A stretch of DNA of 64,000 nt from Alphaproteobacteria bacterium. Its GTDB lineage: Bacteria; Pseudomonadota; Alphaproteobacteria; Rs-D84. The stretch covers positions 21,760-85,759 of the forward strand of contig JAWPOF010000007.1 of assembly GCA_033345275.1 (NCBI GenBank), written 5' to 3'. A program made the translations under genes and the position numbers. A model generated the notes under the pieces. That model was not told where the DNA came from, searched no databases, and saw nothing but the letters and a program-made list of their open reading frames with translations. Positions 2,387 through 18,532 of this stretch are shown here, one piece after another (position 1 is the stretch's first letter; the number at the start of each line of letters is the position of its first letter).

Positions 2387-4198
2387 TTATTTCCCGACAA
2401 TAATTTTCCGGAATATTTCAGCGGGGATTGTGCCACCCGTAATAGATGAATCCATGGGGGAAAAATCGTCGTTCCCCATCCATACACCGATTACCAAATC
2501 ACGTGTTGCGCCAACAAACCAGGCATCACGATTTTCATTACTGGTGCCTGTTTTTCCGCCCAACACTCCGTCTGTATATGCGCGACCACCTGTCCCGCCG
2601 GGGGCAACTACATCTGTCAACATCCTGGTCATAGATTCTACGGTTGCGGGCTGTAATATCATAATTGAGTCTGATGGATTCCGTTCATAAATCACATTTC
2701 CCGACATGTCTGTTATTTTTGTAATAGAATAGGGACGTACCGATTGCCCATTATTCCAAATAACCGCATAAATATTGGTCAGGTCCAGCAAACTCATTTC
2801 CGATGCGCCCAGAACAGTTGAATATTCGCGACGCAACTTGGTACCGACGCCCAATCTGCCCGCCATGGACAGTACAGAATCTATGCCATATTGTTCGGTT
2901 AATTTCAAAGGCACCGAATTTACGCTTTTTGCAAATGCCGTTGCCAATGTAATATCTCCATAATATTTTCCGTTATAGTTTGTCGGGTTATAATCGCCAA
3001 TTGCAAAGGGTGAATCATTTACTGCGCTGTCGGGCAACAAGCCATTTTCCAATGCCACCAGATACACCACAGGTTTAAAAGCACTGCCCGGTTGTCGGTC
3101 GGCTGTGACACGATTAAATTGACTGGCTTGATAATTTGTTCCGCCAGACATGGCGCGTATCGCCCCGTCAGATTCCAGTGCGACCACTGCCCCCTGGTAT
3201 GGGGCGACGCTGTCAGATAAAGTTGCGGCAACATGGTCCTGTAATTGCATATCCAATGTGGTATACACGTACATATCTGACTCAAACGTACCGATTGTGG
3301 ATTTTAATTCATCCATTACATAGTCTGTCCAATATCGATACAGATTTGTATTTGTTGGTCCTGTGGCTGCTTGTAATGACTGCGCAGCCAGTCGTGCTTG
3401 ATTAATTGTTATATACCCTTGTCGCACCATCTGGGTCAAAACAGTGCGCGCGCGCGTGATATTTTTATTTGGATTCCTCAAAGGGCTGTATGTCGTTGGT
3501 GCTTTTAACATAGCGGCAATTTGCGCTGCCTGACCAATCGATAACTTTTCGGCGGGTACATTAAACAGTGTGCGCGCCGCGGCATCAATACCGCGCAATC
3601 CGCCAACCAGCGACACTCGGTTCATATACAAATCCAGAATTTGATTTTTATCAAAACGATTTTCCAACCAATACGACAAAATCAGTTCTTGGACCTTGCG
3701 TGAAATCTTTTTTTCACGCGATAAAAATATATTTTTTGCCGTTTGCTGAGTAATGGTGGAACCGCCCGACGCCACGCGACCAGACACCAGATTGCCAAAG
3801 ACCGCCCGTGTTATACCACGCATATCAATCGGACCGTGTTGGAAAAATCGTTTGTCTTCGATGGCAACAATTGCCTGCCATACATGGGGTGGCAAAGTTT
3901 CAACAGACACAGGCGTGCCCATAATGCGGTTCGTGCTGCGGATTTCGTTGCCGTCCCGGTCCAGAAACACAACCGCTGCATCGCGCGTTTCATTCAAAAT
4001 TGCATCCAATGACGGCATACGCAGGTAAATTACCGCAACATAACCCGCAACTGCAACACAGGCCAATAAAAACAAATTAAAACACCACACCAACAACCGC
4101 CGCCTTAGTGACGGCTTGGGCGTATCGTTTTCAAGATTTTTATTTGCACGTTTTTGCGCCACGTTCCCTCCTCGATACAGGAATTTTAGCATAAACAA
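2387..4198 (-). CDS. mrcA: Class A penicillin-binding protein (transglycosylase plus transpeptidase), compact PBP1A-family
   Basis: N-terminal TM then GT51 motifs (EDKRFFQHGPID, GGSTITQQ). Transpeptidase motifs SAFKP (SxxK), SVN and KTGT. 603 aa is short for PBP1A but all motifs are present. Confidence 0.8.
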   Translation of the reverse strand: MFMLKFLYRGGNVAQKRANKNLENDTPKPSLRRRLLVWCFNLFLLACVAVAGYVAVIYLRMPSLDAILNETRDAAVVFLDRDGNEIRSTNRIMGTPVSVETLPPHVWQAIVAIEDKRFFQHGPIDMRGITRAVFGNLVSGRVASGGSTITQQTAKNIFLSREKKISRKVQELILSYWLENRFDKNQILDLYMNRVSLVGGLRGIDAAARTLFNVPAEKLSIGQAAQIAAMLKAPTTYSPLRNPNKNITRARTVLTQMVRQGYITINQARLAAQSLQAATGPTNTNLYRYWTDYVMDELKSTIGTFESDMYVYTTLDMQLQDHVAATLSDSVAPYQGAVVALESDGAIRAMSGGTNYQASQFNRVTADRQPGSAFKPVVYLVALENGLLPDSAVNDSPFAIGDYNPTNYNGKYYGDITLATAFAKSVNSVPLKLTEQYGIDSVLSMAGRLGVGTKLRREYSTVLGASEMSLLDLTNIYAVIWNNGQSVRPYSITKITDMSGNVIYERNPSDSIMILQPATVESMTRMLTDVVAPGGTGGRAYTDGVLGGKTGTSNENRDAWFVGATRDLVIGVWMGNDDFSPMDSSITGGTIPAEIFRKIIVGK

Positions 4199-4256
4199 CT
4201 TGCGTTTTGCAAAAGATTATATTTATAATCTTAACACATAACAAGGGATATAAAAT

Positions 4257-4910
4257 ATGAAAAAATTAGCATTTGTTCTGGCGATAACTATGGCTGCCCC
4301 AGCGGTCGCAAATGACTATTGGGATGAATACGACTATGACTATGATTCTGATGCAGCGACACAAATGAATATCAGACGCGATACATATGTTGGTTTTCGG
4401 TTGCATAAAAACGAAAGTCTTGCGTTTGAATACGATGTACATGGTGGCAACGACACAAATGTCAGCAAAGACAACTGGGGCTTTGGTGTGGTTGTTGGTA
4501 ATCGGCTCAGCGACCATGTAAAAATTGAATATGAAACAATGTACACAGGGATAAGCCAAACAAAATATGCTACTTCGTATGATTTTGATATATGGGCAAA
4601 TATGCTGAACACCTATTTGTTTTACGAATTTGACAAAGCGATTGCCCCGTATGCAGGGTTGGGTATCGGTTTTTCCAGTATTTGGGGCGCTGTCTCAGTC
4701 CCAGGCACATCAGATTATGCATTTGATTTATCGTACAGCGCAATGCTGGGTGTAAACTTTGCATTAAACGACAGGGTGGATTTGAATCTGGGGGTCAAGT
4801 ATCAATATTATGGTCGGGTTGCTCACAAATTTAATGACGAAGAATTTGCGGTCACAGACATCGATTCCACAGAATTCTACTTTGGTGCGGTATATAAATT
4901 TGGATTGTAA
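4257..4910 (+). CDS. Outer-membrane beta-barrel protein (OmpA/opacity-like 8-strand barrel family)
   Basis: Signal peptide MKKLAFVLAITMAAPAVA, alternating amphipathic strands, aromatic C-terminus YKFGL typical of OMP beta-barrels. Confidence 0.6.
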   Translation: MKKLAFVLAITMAAPAVANDYWDEYDYDYDSDAATQMNIRRDTYVGFRLHKNESLAFEYDVHGGNDTNVSKDNWGFGVVVGNRLSDHVKIEYETMYTGISQTKYATSYDFDIWANMLNTYLFYEFDKAIAPYAGLGIGFSSIWGAVSVPGTSDYAFDLSYSAMLGVNFALNDRVDLNLGVKYQYYGRVAHKFNDEEFAVTDIDSTEFYFGAVYKFGL

Positions 4911-9012: not shown

Positions 9013-11499
9013 TCAAGCTGCATATGAATAGCCCGACAAATAATCAGAAATGATTGTTTGCTTTTGCCCATCAAATTTTTCCTGGGCATTACCAGCCTTA
9101 ATCGGTTTCCAGTTATACATTTTACCCATGTGCGTGTTGCGACCTGTTTCCAGCATGTCCCAATATGCCATCAGTTCCATGAATTTATCTTTGTGGTCTT
9201 CGTCCCACTTGTCCATAACCTCGTTGCGTTTTGATATACGTTCGTTGATTTCTTCGATACTTTTGGTCGCGTTTTCCCACTTATTTATTCGATCTGTTTG
9301 TGCATTATTTCGATCAACCGTGTCATTATAGTTTTGCAATTCTTGTTCATATTGTTGCCCCATCTGTTGATCGGTTGCCCAATTTGGATTGCGCGTTATT
9401 TGTGCCAATTCGTTTGGAATCGCCTGTAATCTTTGTTGAATTTGCGCCAATTGATTCGCGTATTGGATTTTTTCATTAATCAATTCATGATTGCGCATAT
9501 CTATTTCCTGCTGGGAAGCACCAGGAATGTTTTGATTTTGTTGAATCTGAGCATCTAAATTTGCGATTTGTTGACTGATAGCCAGAACATTTTGATTAAG
9601 TGAATTCTGTTCCTGAATTAATTTATGATGGTTGTTATAGCGCTGAATCGCAGGATCTTTGGCGCGCTGGTCCAGGCGGGCTTTTTCTGCGCTCTCGGCG
9701 GTTCTGGCGTTCTCTAAATTTGTTTTTTGCTGTTTAAAGTTCACATCGGTAATAACCTGTTGACCGGGTTGCAAATTCTGATTTACATCATTTTTATTTT
9801 GGTTTTCTTGTTGAATTAATGTTTGGTCCTGGGCATTCATTGCGTTACGTCGCGCGTCCGCCGCCGCCCTGTCGGCTGAGTTTTGTGTTTCCCATTCGGA
9901 CTGTTTCTTTCCCAAGCGACCGCGGTGCCCCTTAAACTTGCTGCCCGACAGGTTGATTGCATTACCAACCATTGTGATACCATATCCGATACCCATAAAC
10001 GCGGTTTTAATACTTTTGTCCAGCGCCTTGGTAACAACTGCCATCCCCTCGTTTTTATTCCATGATAATTTGCCGTCTGAAAAGATGCTTAACTTTTCCT
10101 TGCCCATGGCATCCATGATCTTGCTGGTGGTATATCCGTATTTAATGACAGACAAAACCTCCATCGCAGTTTTAGCTTCATCCACCTTGCCATCACGGAC
10201 GGCAATCATAATCATCTCTTCGATAATTGCATGCATTTGGCGACCGTTGCGCAAGGCACCTTCGAACGCCTTGGGCATCGTGTTGGACAGCTCCCCCATG
10301 GTCTTTGCGAACCATTTGAAATGGTCGGTCGCCTTGGGCGATTTATACAATAACCCCTTTTCTATATCGCTCGCCTTGTCCAGAACGCCCTTAATCCCGT
10401 CAGTTGGTTTTACCTTAGCCTTGTGTATTGCGGCGACGATATTTTTTGCATTAGGCGAAAAATACAGCCGATCGCCCTTGAACTTTACATACTTTTCAAA
10501 TACATCTGCATATGTTTCATCCGCCCACTTGGAAACCTGTTGCCATGGGGTCAGTTTATCATCACGCTTTGGCGGGATATAATCTTTGCTGTTTTGGTCA
10601 TCATAGCCTGTCAGTTCTTTGGCGCGATCAAACGCAGTTCTTATCTTGTCGCTGGGGAATGCATCACGTGTTTTTTCTTCGCTGTACAGCCTGCGCAAGA
10701 TAATATCATACTCGCCATTTTTGAAATTAAGAAATTCCGCACTGCTTGCCAGATTAGTATCATCGTCTTCAAACCCAGATGAAATCTTGTCAAAATCACA
10801 ACCCTTAAAATCAATGGACACTAGCTCGGTTGTACTGGTACGGTAATAATCAAGATATTCAACCAGGTCTTTGAGTTGTTTTTGCAGTGTGGGATCGCTG
10901 TCGTATTTATATTTGCCGTCTTTTTCAGTAATTCCGCTTACCAGATTATCATAATCAATCAAGTTGTTTCTTGTCAAAAACACCCTGAAAAATCTTTCAT
11001 TATTTACGATAACGTCGCGCAACTTGGCAATTTCTAGTTTAGCATCTGGCTTTGCTTTTGTTGAATTGAATAATTTGCCCGCACCAAAATAATCATCCAA
11101 GAAATTTAGTGCCTTGTCGTTCTTGCCACCAAAATCAATTAAGCCTTCTAATTTCTTTTTATTCGCAGCCAATGCACGGAATGCACTGCGGAACTCTTTA
11201 AAGAATTTAATCCATTCTTCTTCCGTCAGATGAAAATCTGGACCATTTGGGTCCGGTAATGGCTTGGATTCCCAGTTGCCTTTAACCTGATGCATCAGGC
11301 TGTTGCGCCAGTCCTTCATGTGTCCACGAAAATCATCCTTGCCCAGATATTCCTGGTATTTTGCCATAACTTCAGCAGGCATCTTTTTTATACGCAACTG
11401 CATAAAGTATTGTAATAAAAAATTTTCCATTGACACATCGGCCATATTTGCACCTTTATCTATCCCATTTATTATAGTGCAAATTGCGGGGAATTTCAA
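9013..11499 (-). CDS. Large hypothetical protein with C-terminal Gln/Asn-rich coiled-coil region (possible secreted effector or phage-derived structural protein)
   Basis: 828-aa ORF (alternative start MADVSMENF at ~11448). The C-terminal ~270 aa is heptad-like and Q/N-rich (QQIANLDAQIQQNQN..., LAQIQQRLQAIPNELAQI). No recognisable enzymatic motif. Confidence 0.4.
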   Translation of the reverse strand: MKFPAICTIINGIDKGANMADVSMENFLLQYFMQLRIKKMPAEVMAKYQEYLGKDDFRGHMKDWRNSLMHQVKGNWESKPLPDPNGPDFHLTEEEWIKFFKEFRSAFRALAANKKKLEGLIDFGGKNDKALNFLDDYFGAGKLFNSTKAKPDAKLEIAKLRDVIVNNERFFRVFLTRNNLIDYDNLVSGITEKDGKYKYDSDPTLQKQLKDLVEYLDYYRTSTTELVSIDFKGCDFDKISSGFEDDDTNLASSAEFLNFKNGEYDIILRRLYSEEKTRDAFPSDKIRTAFDRAKELTGYDDQNSKDYIPPKRDDKLTPWQQVSKWADETYADVFEKYVKFKGDRLYFSPNAKNIVAAIHKAKVKPTDGIKGVLDKASDIEKGLLYKSPKATDHFKWFAKTMGELSNTMPKAFEGALRNGRQMHAIIEEMIMIAVRDGKVDEAKTAMEVLSVIKYGYTTSKIMDAMGKEKLSIFSDGKLSWNKNEGMAVVTKALDKSIKTAFMGIGYGITMVGNAINLSGSKFKGHRGRLGKKQSEWETQNSADRAAADARRNAMNAQDQTLIQQENQNKNDVNQNLQPGQQVITDVNFKQQKTNLENARTAESAEKARLDQRAKDPAIQRYNNHHKLIQEQNSLNQNVLAISQQIANLDAQIQQNQNIPGASQQEIDMRNHELINEKIQYANQLAQIQQRLQAIPNELAQITRNPNWATDQQMGQQYEQELQNYNDTVDRNNAQTDRINKWENATKSIEEINERISKRNEVMDKWDEDHKDKFMELMAYWDMLETGRNTHMGKMYNWKPIKAGNAQEKFDGQKQTIISDYLSGYSYAA

Positions 11500-13547: not shown

Positions 13548-13623
13548 GGGGACATAGCTCAGTTGGTAGAGCAAATGACTTTTAATCATTGGGTCCAGGG
13601 TTCGAGTCCCTGTGTCCCCACCA
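13548..13623 (+). tRNA. tRNA-Lys (anticodon UUU)
   Basis: GGGGACATAGCTCAGTTGGTAGAGCAAATGACTTTTAATCATTGGGTCCAGGGTTCGAGTCCCTGTGTCCCCACCA. Near-identical architecture to E. coli tRNA-Lys, anticodon loop CTTTTAA, 7-bp acceptor stem, encoded CCA. Confidence 0.95.
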
Positions 13624-13630
13624 AAAATTC

Positions 13631-13659
13631 AACGACCGCTTGCCGGTCGTTTAATTTTT
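13631..13659 (+). terminator. Rho-independent terminator after tRNA-Lys
   Basis: Hairpin aacgaccgcttgccggtcgtt followed by taatttttg. Confidence 0.7.
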
Positions 13660-13759
13660 GTATGGGGCGCGGACGAGAACCCAAAAAGGGTTCGGAACGT
13701 TAGTTGCTGAAAACAAGCGTATGCGCCGTTTGAACCTTACGAAGTGAATGGGGATTTAC

Positions 13760-13778
13760 AGTCCCTGTGTCCCCACCA
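13760..13778 (+). repeat. 19-nt direct repeat of the tRNA-Lys 3' end (agtccctgtgtccccacca), an att-site-like scar
   Basis: Exact copy of tRNA positions 13605-13623, located 136 nt downstream of the intact tRNA. The upstream flank gggatttaca is a degenerate T-arm. Confidence 0.8.
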
Positions 13779-14055
13779 CAATAACCTGCTGAAATCAGCA
13801 TGTTTTTTGTTTGTTTGCCCCCACCGCCCGGCGGGCAATATCTTCTATCTTATGGGTGTGTGCAATCGCCTGGTGTGTGAACTTGAACTGTCGGCACAAC
13901 TAAAACGAGAATACGAAACGGAAATCAACTATACGGACAACTATCAATCCCGCCTGACCGTCATGCAAAAATGGTTCGGTATTGTGTTTGTGGAGTAAGA
14001 AATATTGCTTGATTTGTTTTTTTTATATATTACGCTAAAAAGAAACGGCTCAAAA

Positions 14056-15681
14056 ATGCTTCTTGTAAAAAATCTTGAGAAGTCTTTTGATAGTAATGTA
14101 ATTTTCAAAAACTTGAATTTTTCTGTTCAGGACGGTGAAAAAGTCGCTGTTGTCGGTTTAAATGGTGCCGGAAAATCCACCTTGTTTAGAATTTTATTGA
14201 ATCAAATTGATAGTGATGCAGGCGAATTCTATATGGGTAAAAGTCCACGTATTGGTTGGATGCCACAAACAATAGATGAATTGAATCTGCCGGATGATGT
14301 TATTGTTTATGATTTCTTGCGTTCGGGGCGACCTTTGGCCGAAATAGAACGACGTATGACGGAAATATACACCAAAATGGCCGAAGGTGATGATTCAGAA
14401 GAATTGTTACAGCAATTGGGGGTGTGTCAATCTGAATTTGAATACTGGGATGGATATACTGCGGAATCTGAATTAGAAACTATGATAGACCAGATGGGTA
14501 TCGATCGTCAAAATCTGAACAAAAAGTTGGGCGAATTATCAGGCGGTCAAAAATCCAAGATTTCATTTATCCGAACATTATATTCACGCCCCAGCATTTT
14601 ATTTTTAGACGAGCCGACAAACCACCTAGATGCCACCAGTCGTGAATGGATGACGGATTATTTGGTTGCAACAGATGCGTCGGTAATATTTATATCGCAC
14701 GATGAAGAATTCATAGACAAGGTCGCGGATAAGACTCTGTATTTAGATGCTATGATGCATACCGGGACATTATATGGGTTTGGGTACAAACGTTTCTTGC
14801 GTACATTGGCGGAAACAAACGAGAGTTTGGAACGGCAATTACAAAAGCAAATGCGTGAAATAAATCGTATCCAGGCATTTGTTGACAGCCAACGTGGCAA
14901 ATCGGGTAAGGCAAAAAGACAGGCGCAAAGTCGTGAAAAAATGTTAGATAAAATGCGTCAGAATCTGGTGGTTGCACCCATGGAAAAGAAAGATATTGAT
15001 TTGGAGCTAAGTCCAAATCGTGAAGCGGATATTTTGCCAATCACGGTGGAAAATTTAAACTTTTCATACGTTGCCAATAAGAAAGTAATTAAAAATCTTA
15101 CATTTTCATTAAATCAGGGCGAGAAGTTTTTAATTGTTGGGGAAAATGGCGCAGGTAAATCGACCTTGTTAAAATTATTACACAAAATATTAAAACCTGA
15201 TTCTGGTATTGTTCGTATTGGCAAAAAAACCGACTTGGGATACTATGCCCAGGAATACGAGACATTAAACCCAAATATAACAATTCTGGAAAACGCATCA
15301 AGTGTAACAAATATCAGTACATCAAAACTGCGTTCTGTTTTAAATCACTTTAATTTTGTTGGGGACAAGGTAAAACAAAGCGTAAAAACAATGTCGCCAG
15401 GCGAACGCAGCCGTTTAGAGCTGGCCAAATTATGTCTTGGTGGTGCCAATGTTTTATTATTAGACGAACCAACAAATCATCTGGATGTAGCAACCAAGAA
15501 AACCATCGCACAAAGTTTTTCAGAATACGGTGGTACACTGATTATAGTCAGCCATGATTTAGAATTTTTGAAACACCTGGGCATAGATAGAATGCTAATG
15601 TTGCCCAGTGGGCGATTACAGTTTTTTGATGAAAACGTTGTTCGTAGATACATGGAACAAGAAAAACTAAAAGGACATTGA
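14056..15681 (+). CDS. ABC-F family ATPase (EttA/Uup/YheS-like translation factor), two tandem ABC domains
   Basis: Two Walker A motifs (GLNGAGKST, GENGAGKST) and two signature motifs (LSGGQKSKISF, MSPGERSRLELA). Charged inter-domain linker, no TM domain. Likely start is MLLVKNLEKSF, since the track's TTG/ATG at 14005 adds a hydrophobic extension. Confidence 0.85.
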   Translation: MLLVKNLEKSFDSNVIFKNLNFSVQDGEKVAVVGLNGAGKSTLFRILLNQIDSDAGEFYMGKSPRIGWMPQTIDELNLPDDVIVYDFLRSGRPLAEIERRMTEIYTKMAEGDDSEELLQQLGVCQSEFEYWDGYTAESELETMIDQMGIDRQNLNKKLGELSGGQKSKISFIRTLYSRPSILFLDEPTNHLDATSREWMTDYLVATDASVIFISHDEEFIDKVADKTLYLDAMMHTGTLYGFGYKRFLRTLAETNESLERQLQKQMREINRIQAFVDSQRGKSGKAKRQAQSREKMLDKMRQNLVVAPMEKKDIDLELSPNREADILPITVENLNFSYVANKKVIKNLTFSLNQGEKFLIVGENGAGKSTLLKLLHKILKPDSGIVRIGKKTDLGYYAQEYETLNPNITILENASSVTNISTSKLRSVLNHFNFVGDKVKQSVKTMSPGERSRLELAKLCLGGANVLLLDEPTNHLDVATKKTIAQSFSEYGGTLIIVSHDLEFLKHLGIDRMLMLPSGRLQFFDENVVRRYMEQEKLKGH

Positions 15682-15682
15682 T

Positions 15683-16729
15683 ACGCAAGGATTTGGCTTA
15701 CAAATAAAACCCGCAGGCAATAATTGTAATCTAAGGTGTAAATATTGTTATGCGGCCCCTTTCGCCAAATCATGTATCAAAATAATGCCCCTGGATATTC
15801 TTGAAACTGCAATAAGAAAAAATTTAGCTTTTCAAGGCAGTGTATTTTTCTCTTGGCATGGTGGTGAACCGTTACTTGCGGGTATAGACTTTTTCAAAAA
15901 GGCAGTTGAATTTATAGATAAATATAAAAACAGTGAACATATTGTAACAAATATGGTGCAAACAAATGCTACACTAATAACCCCAGAATTTGCTCGGTTC
16001 TTCAAGGATAATGGTATCACTGTTAGTGTCAGCATTGATGGGCCAGAATTTTTACATAATTTGAACCGTGTTGACCATGCAGGGATTGGTAGTTTTTCGA
16101 ATGTAATGCGTGTAAGGGATGTTGGACTGCAACCACCGGTGATTGCAACAATTACGCAAGACAGCATAAAATACGGCAAAGAAATATTTGATTTTTTGGT
16201 TGTCAATGGGTTTACCGATATCAAATTTAGTCCAGTTTACGATTCTTGTTCTGATAATTTTAGTGTTAGTTCGGATGATTGGTTTTACTTTTTAAAAGAT
16301 GTATTACACGCATGGTTTGAACATGGTGACACATCTGTCAAGGTTCGCGAAATAGATGAAGTTGTTGCGTGGTTGTCAAATAAAACGATGAACCTGTGTG
16401 CAAGCAAACATTCTTGCTTAAGTTGGATATCTATAGACCCAGATGGGAATATTTATCCATGTGAATATCTGCGCAGTGAAATGCCATACGGAAACATATT
16501 AGACATGGATTTGGCTGATGTTTACAAGACTGCTTCTTATGCAAGATTTAAAAAACTATTTTTACACAAACCAGAAAAATGCCAGAAGTGTCGTTTTTGG
16601 GATTTGTGTGGAAATGGCTGTCCTGCGACTCGTGTCAAGGACGGTCTAATGACCCATGACGGTGTCTATGTTTATTGCGAGGAAAGAATCAAACTGTTTA
16701 ACGAACTAAAAATTATTCTTGAATCCTGA
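15683..16729 (+). CDS. Radical SAM / SPASM-domain enzyme (anSME / peptide-maturase-like); apparent start codon ACG
   Basis: In-frame translation from 15680 gives DTQGFGLQIKPAGNNCNLRCKYCYAAPF (CxxxCxxC rSAM cluster in the canonical N-terminal position). The C-terminus carries a SPASM motif CQKCRFWDLCGNGCPATR. No ATG/GTG/TTG lies between the upstream in-frame TAA (15668) and the motif. A good SD AAAAGGA sits 7 nt before ACG 15683. The first in-frame ATG (15785) is downstream of the Fe-S motif. Confidence 0.75.
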   Translation, partial: TQGFGLQIKPAGNNCNLRCKYCYAAPFAKSCIKIMPLDILETAIRKNLAFQGSVFFSWHGGEPLLAGIDFFKKAVEFIDKYKNSEHIVTNMVQTNATLITPEFARFFKDNGITVSVSIDGPEFLHNLNRVDHAGIGSFSNVMRVRDVGLQPPVIATITQDSIKYGKEIFDFLVVNGFTDIKFSPVYDSCSDNFSVSSDDWFYFLKDVLHAWFEHGDTSVKVREIDEVVAWLSNKTMNLCASKHSCLSWISIDPDGNIYPCEYLRSEMPYGNILDMDLADVYKTASYARFKKLFLHKPEKCQKCRFWDLCGNGCPATRVKDGLMTHDGVYVYCEERIKLFNELKIILES

Positions 16730-16771: not shown

Positions 16772-16867
16772 ATGAAAAAACAAATGTTGTTGGCCGCTAT
16801 CCATAGAATAGAAGAGCAATCTGCTATGAAATGGCGTGGCATCATGGTCAACTGGATGAAATGTTAA
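16772..16867 (+). CDS. Small peptide gene (31 aa, MKKQMLLAAIHRIEEQSAMKWRGIMVNWMKC), candidate RiPP precursor co-transcribed with the rSAM-SPASM gene
   Basis: Strong SD (gacAGGAGAacaaacATG), an ATG, 31 sense codons and a TAA immediately followed by a strong intrinsic terminator. It lies 43 bp downstream of the rSAM gene on the same strand. The C-terminus is rich in Trp/Lys (KW...NWMKC). Confidence 0.55.
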   Translation: MKKQMLLAAIHRIEEQSAMKWRGIMVNWMKC

Positions 16868-16870
16868 TAT

Positions 16871-16895
16871 TCCCCCGTAATGGGGGGATTTTTTA
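16871..16895. terminator. Rho-independent terminator (tcccccgtaatggggggatttttt) ending the rSAM-peptide transcript; also serves the convergent PLD gene
   Basis: 7-bp GC-rich stem, 4-nt loop, T6 run. On the opposite strand a short A-run precedes the hairpin. Confidence 0.8.
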
Positions 16896-17480
16896 CCTAT
16901 ACATCCCCCACAAATACTCAAATTGTTTGCTGTATTCTTGTGCTGGGTAGGTCAGGAAGATACAGTTTTCGTTGTTGTACTTGGTGGCGGCGGTGGTCCA
17001 GTTATAGGAACCCGTCACCATACTCATATTATCAAAGACGGCAAATTTATTATGTTCAATCTTGTGCTGGCGGTTGGTGCGGACGGGAATGCCGGCGGCG
17101 ACCAACTCCCCAATCATGGACGATTTATGCCCAGCCATAGTTCGGTCTGTGACAATTCGCACCCTTCCGCCCCGACGGTGGGCGGCAATAATGGCGTTCG
17201 CAATTTTCGGATTGGTTATGGAATATACGGCAACGTCGATTTTATCGGCCCGACCCAGCTCGGCAATTATGCGGTCTTCGCATTCGGTGCCGGGGGTGAA
17301 ATATGATTCTATGTGTGCGGGTATGCTGGGTGGTGCGACCGTCCGTGTGGGCAATTGCGCCCCAACGCCAACCCCAATGGCAAACGCAATCCCAATAACA
17401 AAAGTCCATTGTCTGACAACCATACAACCCCAAACAAAAGACCACTCAAATAAAGAGTGGTCGGGAGTTGATCGATTCAA
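16893..17480 (-). CDS. Phospholipase D-family protein (Nuc-like endonuclease / PLD superfamily), secreted
   Basis: HKIEHNKFAVFD matches the HxK(x)4D PLD motif. N-terminal signal/TM (VVRQWTFVIGIAFAIGVGVGA). Size (~170 aa mature) is typical of Nuc-type PLD nucleases. Confidence 0.7.
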   Translation of the reverse strand: MNRSTPDHSLFEWSFVWGCMVVRQWTFVIGIAFAIGVGVGAQLPTRTVAPPSIPAHIESYFTPGTECEDRIIAELGRADKIDVAVYSITNPKIANAIIAAHRRGGRVRIVTDRTMAGHKSSMIGELVAAGIPVRTNRQHKIEHNKFAVFDNMSMVTGSYNWTTAATKYNNENCIFLTYPAQEYSKQFEYLWGMYR

Positions 17481-17665: not shown

Positions 17666-18532
17666 TTACATCACGATCTGTAATACTTTATTTACATTTC
17701 TGTCGGGTGATTTTCCCATTTCTAAATCTTCTTTGATATCATATAACAGATTTACTACAGATTGAAAACGCTGTCTTTCTGGGAAATATACGTCTCCAGT
17801 GTCGCCATATCCTGCCAGCAATTCTTTTGCACCATTGCCATAGTAATAGTGCATGTCGCGTGATGGTTCGGCATATCCCGCTTCGCCAAAGTCAATAAGC
17901 CCCACGATTTTTTTTGTGTTTGTATCGAACATCATGTTGCCAAAATGCAAATCACAGTGTGTCAAAACTGGTTTTACAGGATATTGTTCAGATAAGTATT
18001 TATATCTGTCGCGCACGGCGTTGATGTGCTGAATCTGCTCATCTGTGAATTGTTTTTTTACTATGTCAGGAAAGTATTCGTCAAACACTTCTAAGCTGTC
18101 TGTGTAATGTAATGGTGCATCTTGCAACCAACTGTAATCATTCTCCAGATTATGTAATTCGCGTGCAATTTTACCGATTTGACGTAATATATCGGATTTT
18201 GTTTCTTCGTCAAAAGAATCGTGCATTTCCTGGGTGTATGTCGTGCCGTGTACCAATGTTTCGCCAATGATGTTTCGACCTGACTTGTCCTTTTTGTGAT
18301 ATAAAATTTCTGGAACCTCAAAGCTCAACTTGCCTTTTAGAAAGTTTAATACTTTGATTTCTTTGTCAGGATTGTTAAATGGCGCGTCTTCTTTTTTAGG
18401 TATTCTGAATACAACGCTGTCATTAACCAATACAGCGATGACATTTCGTCCCGAACCTATTTTTTTTATACTTTTTATTTCTATTTCAGGAAACGTTTCG
18501 ATGATGGTTTCCTGGATTTGTTCAGTTGTCAT
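17666..18532 (-). CDS. Phosphotransferase-family protein (APH / choline-kinase-like kinase fold)
   Basis: Brenner motif HCDLHFGNMMFD and the downstream IDFGEAGYAEPSRD (DFG-like) typical of the aminoglycoside phosphotransferase / CotS / choline kinase family. Confidence 0.75.
   Translation of the reverse strand: MTTEQIQETIIETFPEIEIKSIKKIGSGRNVIAVLVNDSVVFRIPKKEDAPFNNPDKEIKVLNFLKGKLSFEVPEILYHKKDKSGRNIIGETLVHGTTYTQEMHDSFDEETKSDILRQIGKIARELHNLENDYSWLQDAPLHYTDSLEVFDEYFPDIVKKQFTDEQIQHINAVRDRYKYLSEQYPVKPVLTHCDLHFGNMMFDTNTKKIVGLIDFGEAGYAEPSRDMHYYYGNGAKELLAGYGDTGDVYFPERQRFQSVVNLLYDIKEDLEMGKSPDRNVNKVLQIVM

Follow-up and report, generated by a model that had tools for sequence, protein, structure and literature searches.

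Probable loss of the start codon of a radical-SAM/SPASM maturase gene in one sublineage of an uncultured alphaproteobacterium

Is a gene that has lost its start codon still a gene? The question is raised by a reading frame for a radical S-adenosylmethionine (SAM)/SPASM protein in assembly GCA_033345275.1 of a gut-type Alphaproteobacteria bacterium (lineage Rs-D84), which we analysed in a stretch of 64,000 nucleotides (nt) of contig JAWPOF010000007.1 (positions 21,760 to 85,759; the whole stretch is called the window here, and coordinates are those of the window unless a contig is named). The frame follows a gene for an ABC-F ATPase, resembles that of the anaerobic sulfatase-maturating enzyme (anSME) and carries ACG where the ATG should be. 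An earlier note on this DNA had left the choice between a T-to-C lesion (incipient pseudogene or sequencing error) and rare non-AUG initiation. Comparison with relatives supports the lesion: we think it likely that the start codon was really lost and that the gene is decaying or severely hypomorphic, while functional non-AUG initiation found little support, as the ACG is not conserved, no compensating start has arisen and sister copies are frameshifted.

Direct reading of the window bore out the earlier description of the gene junction. The maturase frame is +1 relative to that of the ABC-F gene, opens at the TAA at 15668-15670 within the 3' end of the ABC-F gene and closes at 16727-16729; the ABC-F gene itself ends in CAT TGA, with its stop (15679-15681) 1 nt ahead of the ancestral maturase start. 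After the TAA the maturase frame reads AAG GAC ATT GAT ACG CAA GGA and is translated as K D I D T Q G F G L Q I K P A G N N C N L R C K Y C Y. The ACG stands 7 nt from the Shine-Dalgarno (SD)-like AAAAGGA, which is a good spacing, and neither the listing of open reading frames (ORFs) nor direct reading of the window gave an ATG, GTG or TTG in this frame before position 15785, well past the CNLRCKYC motif. A start at 15785 removes the ligands of the Fe-S cluster, as had been predicted, and just such a 314-amino-acid product (P0121) was called on one Logan contig, L010. Position 3 of the anSME profile TIGR03942 aligns 6 residues past the ACG codon and this, together with the N-termini of orthologs, indicates that the 34 codons upstream of 15785 belong to the protein and that the start is expected at the position of the ACG.

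The orthologs have an ATG at exactly that position. An intact 352-amino-acid protein found by protein search (P0001, 98% identical to the window product) begins MQGFGLQIKPAGNNCNLRCKYCY, the same N-terminus that the earlier note had obtained by restoring the ATG on paper, and other orthologs start alike. Its contig (L001, 96% identical to the window at the DNA level) reads GATATGCAAGG as against GATACGCAAGG in the window, and an ATG is likewise aligned to the ACG codon in the 72%-identical orthologs L002-L004 and in ten more strain contigs (L094-L103). Position 15684 is a C in the window and in three other contigs, L010, L011 and L092, all four having one distinct haplotype at the ABC-F 3' end; judged by sequence, the ACG contigs form one sublineage. 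As every ortholog and strain outside the sublineage has ATG, the ACG is a derived T-to-C transition. Only contigs from ENA and Logan inform the allele frequencies, as neither allele turned up when JGI metagenome contigs were scanned for exact patterns (GGACATTGATAYGCAAGGATTTGG). In a scan of genome contigs the best hits among the matches listed were 42-49% identical, with the window's own species not among them.

A single-base difference in a metagenome-assembled genome (MAG) could well be a sequencing or assembly error that hides a true ATG, an option that the earlier note had kept. The same C, however, was observed directly in assemblies of three other read sets, namely the Logan assembly of SRR22308413 (L010, 100% identical to the window over 10,146 nt), a Logan contig from another run, SRR10504701 (L011), and an ENA scaffold from another BioSample (L092, ERZ28633813 / SAMN15871092), and it is linked to the distinct ABC-F haplotype. 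The presence of ACG in three assemblies outside the window record rules out an assembly error, and we regard an error of either kind as extremely improbable. The earlier note had counted an ATG in orthologs as a sign of assembly error; orthologs do show the ATG, but with the C recurring in this way it indicates a real mutation.

If the mutation is real, the gene might still be translated, and one alternative is that re-initiation after the ABC-F TGA, at the ACG or at an in-frame ATT (15677-15679) that the earlier note had missed, gives low but sufficient expression of an active enzyme four residues shorter than its relatives. A single nucleotide separates the stop from the start, the SD-like element is well placed for the ACG, the substitutions in the gene are mostly synonymous, and ATT is an allowed initiator in translation table 11. 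GenBank uses it: the 350-amino-acid "radical SAM protein" MDW2974900.1 (P0123) starts MDTQGFG and is the window ORF begun at ATT 15677 (MDW2974899.1, from a MAG labelled "Alphaproteobacteria bacterium", is in turn identical to the window ABC-F product). Non-AUG initiation is also detectable in E. coli, where AUU initiates at 1-2% of the AUG level and the other codons, ACG among them, at 0.1-1%, where green fluorescent protein (GFP) initiated at ACG bore an N-terminal Met, and where AUU is the confirmed start codon of infC and pcnB (Hecht et al., bioRxiv 10.1101/063800). Against this, all relatives outside the sublineage use ATG, so that the non-AUG start is not conserved as a selected start might be. 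The ATT is found in ATG-allele strains as well and thus did not arise to replace the lost start; the CAT-TGA codons of the ABC-F gene fix it in place, and it lies 1 nt from the SD-like element, which is too short a spacing, and both ATT and ACG are weak starts. The 32 nt before the changed base (15652-15683) are identical in ATG and ACG alleles, so neither a compensating start nor a change in the SD-like element has appeared. On these alignments the ATT is a fortuitous near-cognate codon set by the end of the ABC-F gene, and the 350-amino-acid GenBank protein is an annotation rescue.

What further tells against a functional product is the damage that accompanies the ACG. Every ACG contig carries secondary lesions and such lesions were observed only in contigs of the ACG lineage (Table 1; the start codon lies outside contig L093, which has lesions in common with L011 and L092). 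The ATG alleles examined are intact at 352 amino acids and without indels, by sequence in P0001, P0122, P0124, P0125 and P0126 and by DNA in L001 and L094-L103, and further ATG-allele products are listed at 352 amino acids. The sister ACG contigs L011 and L092 are frameshifted, which argues that the gene is dispensable in the lineage. The window copy and L010 have instead a 12-nt in-frame deletion of their own, also missed by the earlier note, which takes out G144 and turns L148 into V, both residues being invariant in an alignment of 41 homologs of 36-73% identity. An AlphaFold (AF2) model of the intact protein (mean predicted local distance difference test score, pLDDT, 92.7) places residues 144-148 at the centre of helix 138-150, within the radical-SAM core, and the stretch of anSME structure 4K37 aligned with them falls in a helix region. 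Within the ACG lineage the ABC-F gene shows 0-2 substitutions and the maturase gene 19-26 substitutions plus indels. With these lesions added to the comparison of starts, we consider functional non-AUG initiation unlikely; a narrower and more novel form of it would be that re-initiation at ACG or ATT, coupled to termination of the ABC-F gene, sets a very low dose of the maturase.

Recoding could in principle also supply the missing start, either by a programmed +1 frameshift at CAT-TGA that fuses the ABC-F protein to the maturase or by C-to-U editing of the mRNA to AUG. The maturase frame is indeed +1 to the ABC-F frame, and an SD-like element directly precedes the codon and stop, an arrangement that loosely resembles that of prfB. 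The relatives, however, encode two separate proteins, the second with its ATG; CAT-T should give the tRNA-His no slippery +1 re-pairing; and the frameshifted sister alleles speak against any selected product. Start-codon editing from C to U occurs in plant organelles and is not known from bacteria. We therefore give recoding hardly any credence.

Several points nonetheless weigh against the decay of the gene. The window copy is open for 348 codons, without frameshift or premature stop, and the four residues deleted from it amount to about one helical turn, the loss of which might be tolerated. Its tight stop/start junction and well-spaced SD-like element could allow some termination-reinitiation at ACG or ATT and, as the maturase is catalytic, a little protein may be enough. 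Both the ABC-F gene and the candidate precursor gene described below are still intact. Substitutions between the ACG sub-branches are mostly synonymous, which implies earlier constraint or recombination and only recent decay. A branch-wise dN/dS (nonsynonymous to synonymous rate) comparison made by hand found terminal branches rich in damaging changes and shared sub-branch differences mostly synonymous, with changes too few for statistics; the contrast suggests recombination or recent decay. Finally, strain mosaics may be present among the Logan and ENA contigs: in L011 the initial 79 nt fail to align with the window, although the ~1,500 nt after them match it exactly, and so L011 may be chimeric or a mosaic and its private substitutions call for caution.

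Taking these together, we still favour start-codon loss followed by decay. We read the window copy, with its ancestral start gone and invariant residues lost or altered, most readily as a pseudogene at an early stage; at most it would be a severe hypomorph. The ancestral junction TGAtATG would have coupled translation of the maturase to that of the upstream ABC-F gene; in one sublineage of this uncultured species (an "Alphaproteobacteria bacterium" at NCBI) a T-to-C change would then have turned the ATG into ACG with no canonical replacement, and expression would have fallen to the ~0.1-2% of the AUG level that ACG or AUU starts should give. With the ORF thereby under relaxed selection, separate descendants would have gained separate secondary lesions, and the window copy would have lost its 12 in-frame nt with the invariant residues among them. 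The comparison shows directly which allele each contig carries, that the alleles do not depend on the assembly, that ACG is the derived state and that further lesions occur with it; that expression and function were lost, and in what order things happened, is what we infer from this pattern. No compensating paralog was found in the 64-kb window by tblastn.

What the intact gene encodes is probably a peptide maturase. The window product scores above the cut-offs for radical SAM (PF04055, 53.1 bits against 29.5) and SPASM (PF13186, 39.3 bits against 21.5). C15, C19 and C22 of its CxxxCxxC motif are invariant in family alignments, as are, in the 41-sequence alignment and in P0001 numbering, C243, C249, C264, C304, C307, C313, C317 and C336. 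Its best NCBIfam match is TIGR03942 (anSME) at 250.7 bits, under the equivalog cut-off of 349.45; NF010321 (184.7 bits, cut-off 441) is also below its cut-off, and a second tier of DynA (196.6 bits, cut-off 450), GrrM/OscB (148.3) and DarE (130.8, cut-off 650) lies far under the cut-offs. Most likely, on these matches and on gene context, the product is a maturase of the kind that modifies ribosomally synthesised and post-translationally modified peptides (RiPPs), acting on a 31-amino-acid peptide encoded next to it. As to the chemistry, a Trp-Lys cross-link of darobactin/triceptide type or an anSME-like oxidation of the C-terminal Cys are guesses by analogy.

The 31-amino-acid ORF ends in W-x-K-C. 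Peptides with similar leaders, 27-50 amino acids long and with an invariant C-terminal W-x-K-C-stop that usually comes after W-(R/Q)-G, adjoin the radical-SAM gene in 11 of the 12 lineages of this subfamily, the arrangement of a short precursor with a conserved core beside its maturase that is expected of a radical-SAM RiPP cassette. The six frames of the window contain W-x-K-C-stop a single time, and 585 kb of loci surrounding anSME-like genes of more distant kinship contain no copy of it. Neither NCBIfam nor Pfam matched the peptides, even at E = 10, and no description of the cassette or of the motif was found in the searchable literature; they are probably an undescribed family of RiPP precursors. 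In L002-L009 gene callers annotate a 56-amino-acid ORF in another frame (11095-11265), which the 31-amino-acid W-x-K-C peptide (11099-11194) overlaps, and the precursor is thus hidden in existing gene calls.

An ABC-F gene adjoins in most of the lineages, the labels of which include Alphaproteobacteria, Clostridia, Patescibacteria, Saccharimonas and SR1; at L108 an MFS transporter gene lies upstream of the radical-SAM gene and the genes called within ±4 kb include no ABC-F. The ACG contigs all retain an intact precursor, which in L092 and L093 differs by a single V-to-I substitution. We tentatively propose that these loci represent a widespread and undescribed three-gene cassette (ABC-F, anSME-like radical-SAM/SPASM protein and 27-50-amino-acid W-x-K-C peptide) of which the ACG lineage offers natural maturase knock-outs or knock-downs that have kept the ABC-F and precursor genes; this is possible, but we are less sure of it than of the start-codon loss.

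Around the cassette, a tRNA-Lys(UUU) gene and a bidirectional terminator-like hairpin lie just upstream (13548-13651), followed by ~400 nt (13652-14055) with no convincing gene before the ABC-F start, which could be a leader or attenuator region of the ABC-F gene or an insertion hotspot. The region downstream of the cassette is the most variable between strains (6.5% divergence plus indels) and contains a PLD-like nuclease gene on the minus strand (16893-17480). L001 has there an extra APH-family phosphotransferase gene (3805-4596; region 3798-4607 of L001, against ~17660 in the window) beside one that it has in common with the window (17666-18532). Large autotransporter genes with Chlam_PMP repeats lie near the cassette in the L002-L009 loci (72% identity; for example L002 1-2954), and there is otherwise no synteny between the two species groups in this neighbourhood.

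Table 1. Coordinates of the cassette, of its start-codon region and lesions, and of related loci
Feature	Sequence	Coordinates	Strand	Evidence or remarks
ABC-F ATPase gene, ribosomal-protection-like, 541 aa (amino acids), intact	window	14056..15681	+	NF000355 403 bits vs cut-off 380
Shine-Dalgarno-like AAAAGGA within ABC-F 3' end	window	15669..15675	+	same in ATG- and ACG-allele contigs
In-frame ATT, start implied by public annotation; overlaps ABC-F CAT-TGA codons	window	15677..15679	+	MDW2974900.1
Radical-SAM/SPASM gene, anSME-like putative peptide maturase, 348 codons + stop, no start codon, 4-codon deletion	window	15683..16729	+	PF04055, PF13186 above cut-offs
ACG at ancestral ATG position, T-to-C at 15684	window	15683..15685	+	ATG in L001, L002-L004, L094-L103; ACG in window, L010, L011, L092
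CNLRCKYC, CxxxCxxC radical-SAM [4Fe-4S] motif, upstream of first canonical start	window	15725..15748	+	translation
First canonical ATG of the maturase frame	window	15785..15787	+	ORF listing; product 314 aa without cluster ligands
Junction of 12-nt in-frame deletion relative to all relatives	window, L010	16112..16113	+	GVKY lost, L to V (MRGVKYLRD to MRVRD)
+T frameshift	L011, L092, L093	after 16191		
A missing, second frameshift (-1)	L092, L093	16573		
C243Y at invariant SPASM Cys and TGA to AGA stop loss	L011			
31-aa ORF MKKQMLLAAIHRIEEQSAMKWRGIMVNWMKC, candidate precursor peptide of the maturase, intact	window	16772..16867	+	AGGAG 7 nt upstream
Intrinsic-terminator-like hairpin and T-run closing the ABC-F/radical-SAM/peptide unit	window	16869..16895	+	
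W-x-K-C ORF	L002	11099-11194		L002-type orthologs
W-x-K-C ORF	L104	5061-5165		
W-x-K-C ORF	L106	5108-5203		
W-x-K-C ORF	L108	5082-5234		
W-x-K-C ORF	L012	2489-2602		labelled SR1
W-x-K-C ORF	L013	7977-8075		labelled Clostridia
W-x-K-C ORF	L015	5086-5196		
W-x-K-C ORFs, two tandem copies	L016	5063-5161, 5195-5281		labelled Patescibacteria
W-x-K-C ORF	L017	5077-5160		labelled Saccharimonas
ABC-F gene linked to radical-SAM/peptide genes	L104	2339-3985		
ABC-F gene linked to radical-SAM/peptide genes	L106	6221-7855	-	
ABC-F gene linked to radical-SAM/peptide genes	L012	5136-6686	-	
ABC-F gene linked to radical-SAM/peptide genes	L013	6248-7840		
ABC-F gene linked to radical-SAM/peptide genes	L016	2418-3961		
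ABC-F gene linked to radical-SAM/peptide genes	L017	5232-6782	-	

Loss of a start codon is an ordinary phenomenon, and this gene is already in GenBank with its ATT start. The locus does, however, bear on annotation, since callers limited to ATG, GTG and TTG give the short product without Fe-S ligands while NCBI rescues 350 residues from the ATT, and the population evidence that the gene is probably dying means that either call needs a caveat before it is taken for a functional enzyme. The locus would also be a small, clean example of a start codon being lost before independent secondary lesions accrued in sister strains. Its wider value lies in the context, that of a conserved ABC-F, radical-SAM/SPASM and W-x-K-C cassette, for the function of which the ATG and ACG alleles of one species are natural comparison material.

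Among known systems, infC and pcnB with their AUU starts, and pseudogenes that arose by loss of the start, share with the window gene a one-base change from AUG in front of an otherwise open, homologous ORF. The AUU of infC and pcnB is conserved and has a regulatory role; here, unlike in those genes, the non-AUG codon is limited to one sublineage, the ATT arises by chance from the last codons of the upstream gene and the ORF is gaining indels. The anSME of Clostridium perfringens (PDB 4K36-4K39; TIGR03942) is the best match of solved structure (175 bits over residues 4-322) and has in common with the window product the radical-SAM core and a SPASM domain with auxiliary-cluster cysteines, but the window gene falls below the equivalog cut-off and adjoins a W-x-K-C peptide gene instead, no sulfatase gene having been identified among the neighbouring genes examined. 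The radical-SAM/SPASM maturases of Trp-Lys or cyclophane RiPPs (DynA, DarE, GrrM/OscB, XyeB and AmcB) resemble it in that a short precursor carrying a conserved aromatic-x-basic motif is encoded alongside, and W-x-K may be likened to the W-S-K ring of darobactin; those systems lack both the invariant Cys at the C-terminus and the link to ABC-F genes that mark the window cassette. The upstream gene, lastly, passes the model for ribosomal protection-like ABC-F proteins and is in this like the ARE-type ABC-F genes, which confer self-resistance in some antibiotic biosynthetic clusters, but differs from them in its coupling to genes for a peptide maturase and a very small precursor. The linkage suggests that the peptide product may be functionally tied to the ribosome, with the ABC-F protein providing immunity or the ribosome being the target.

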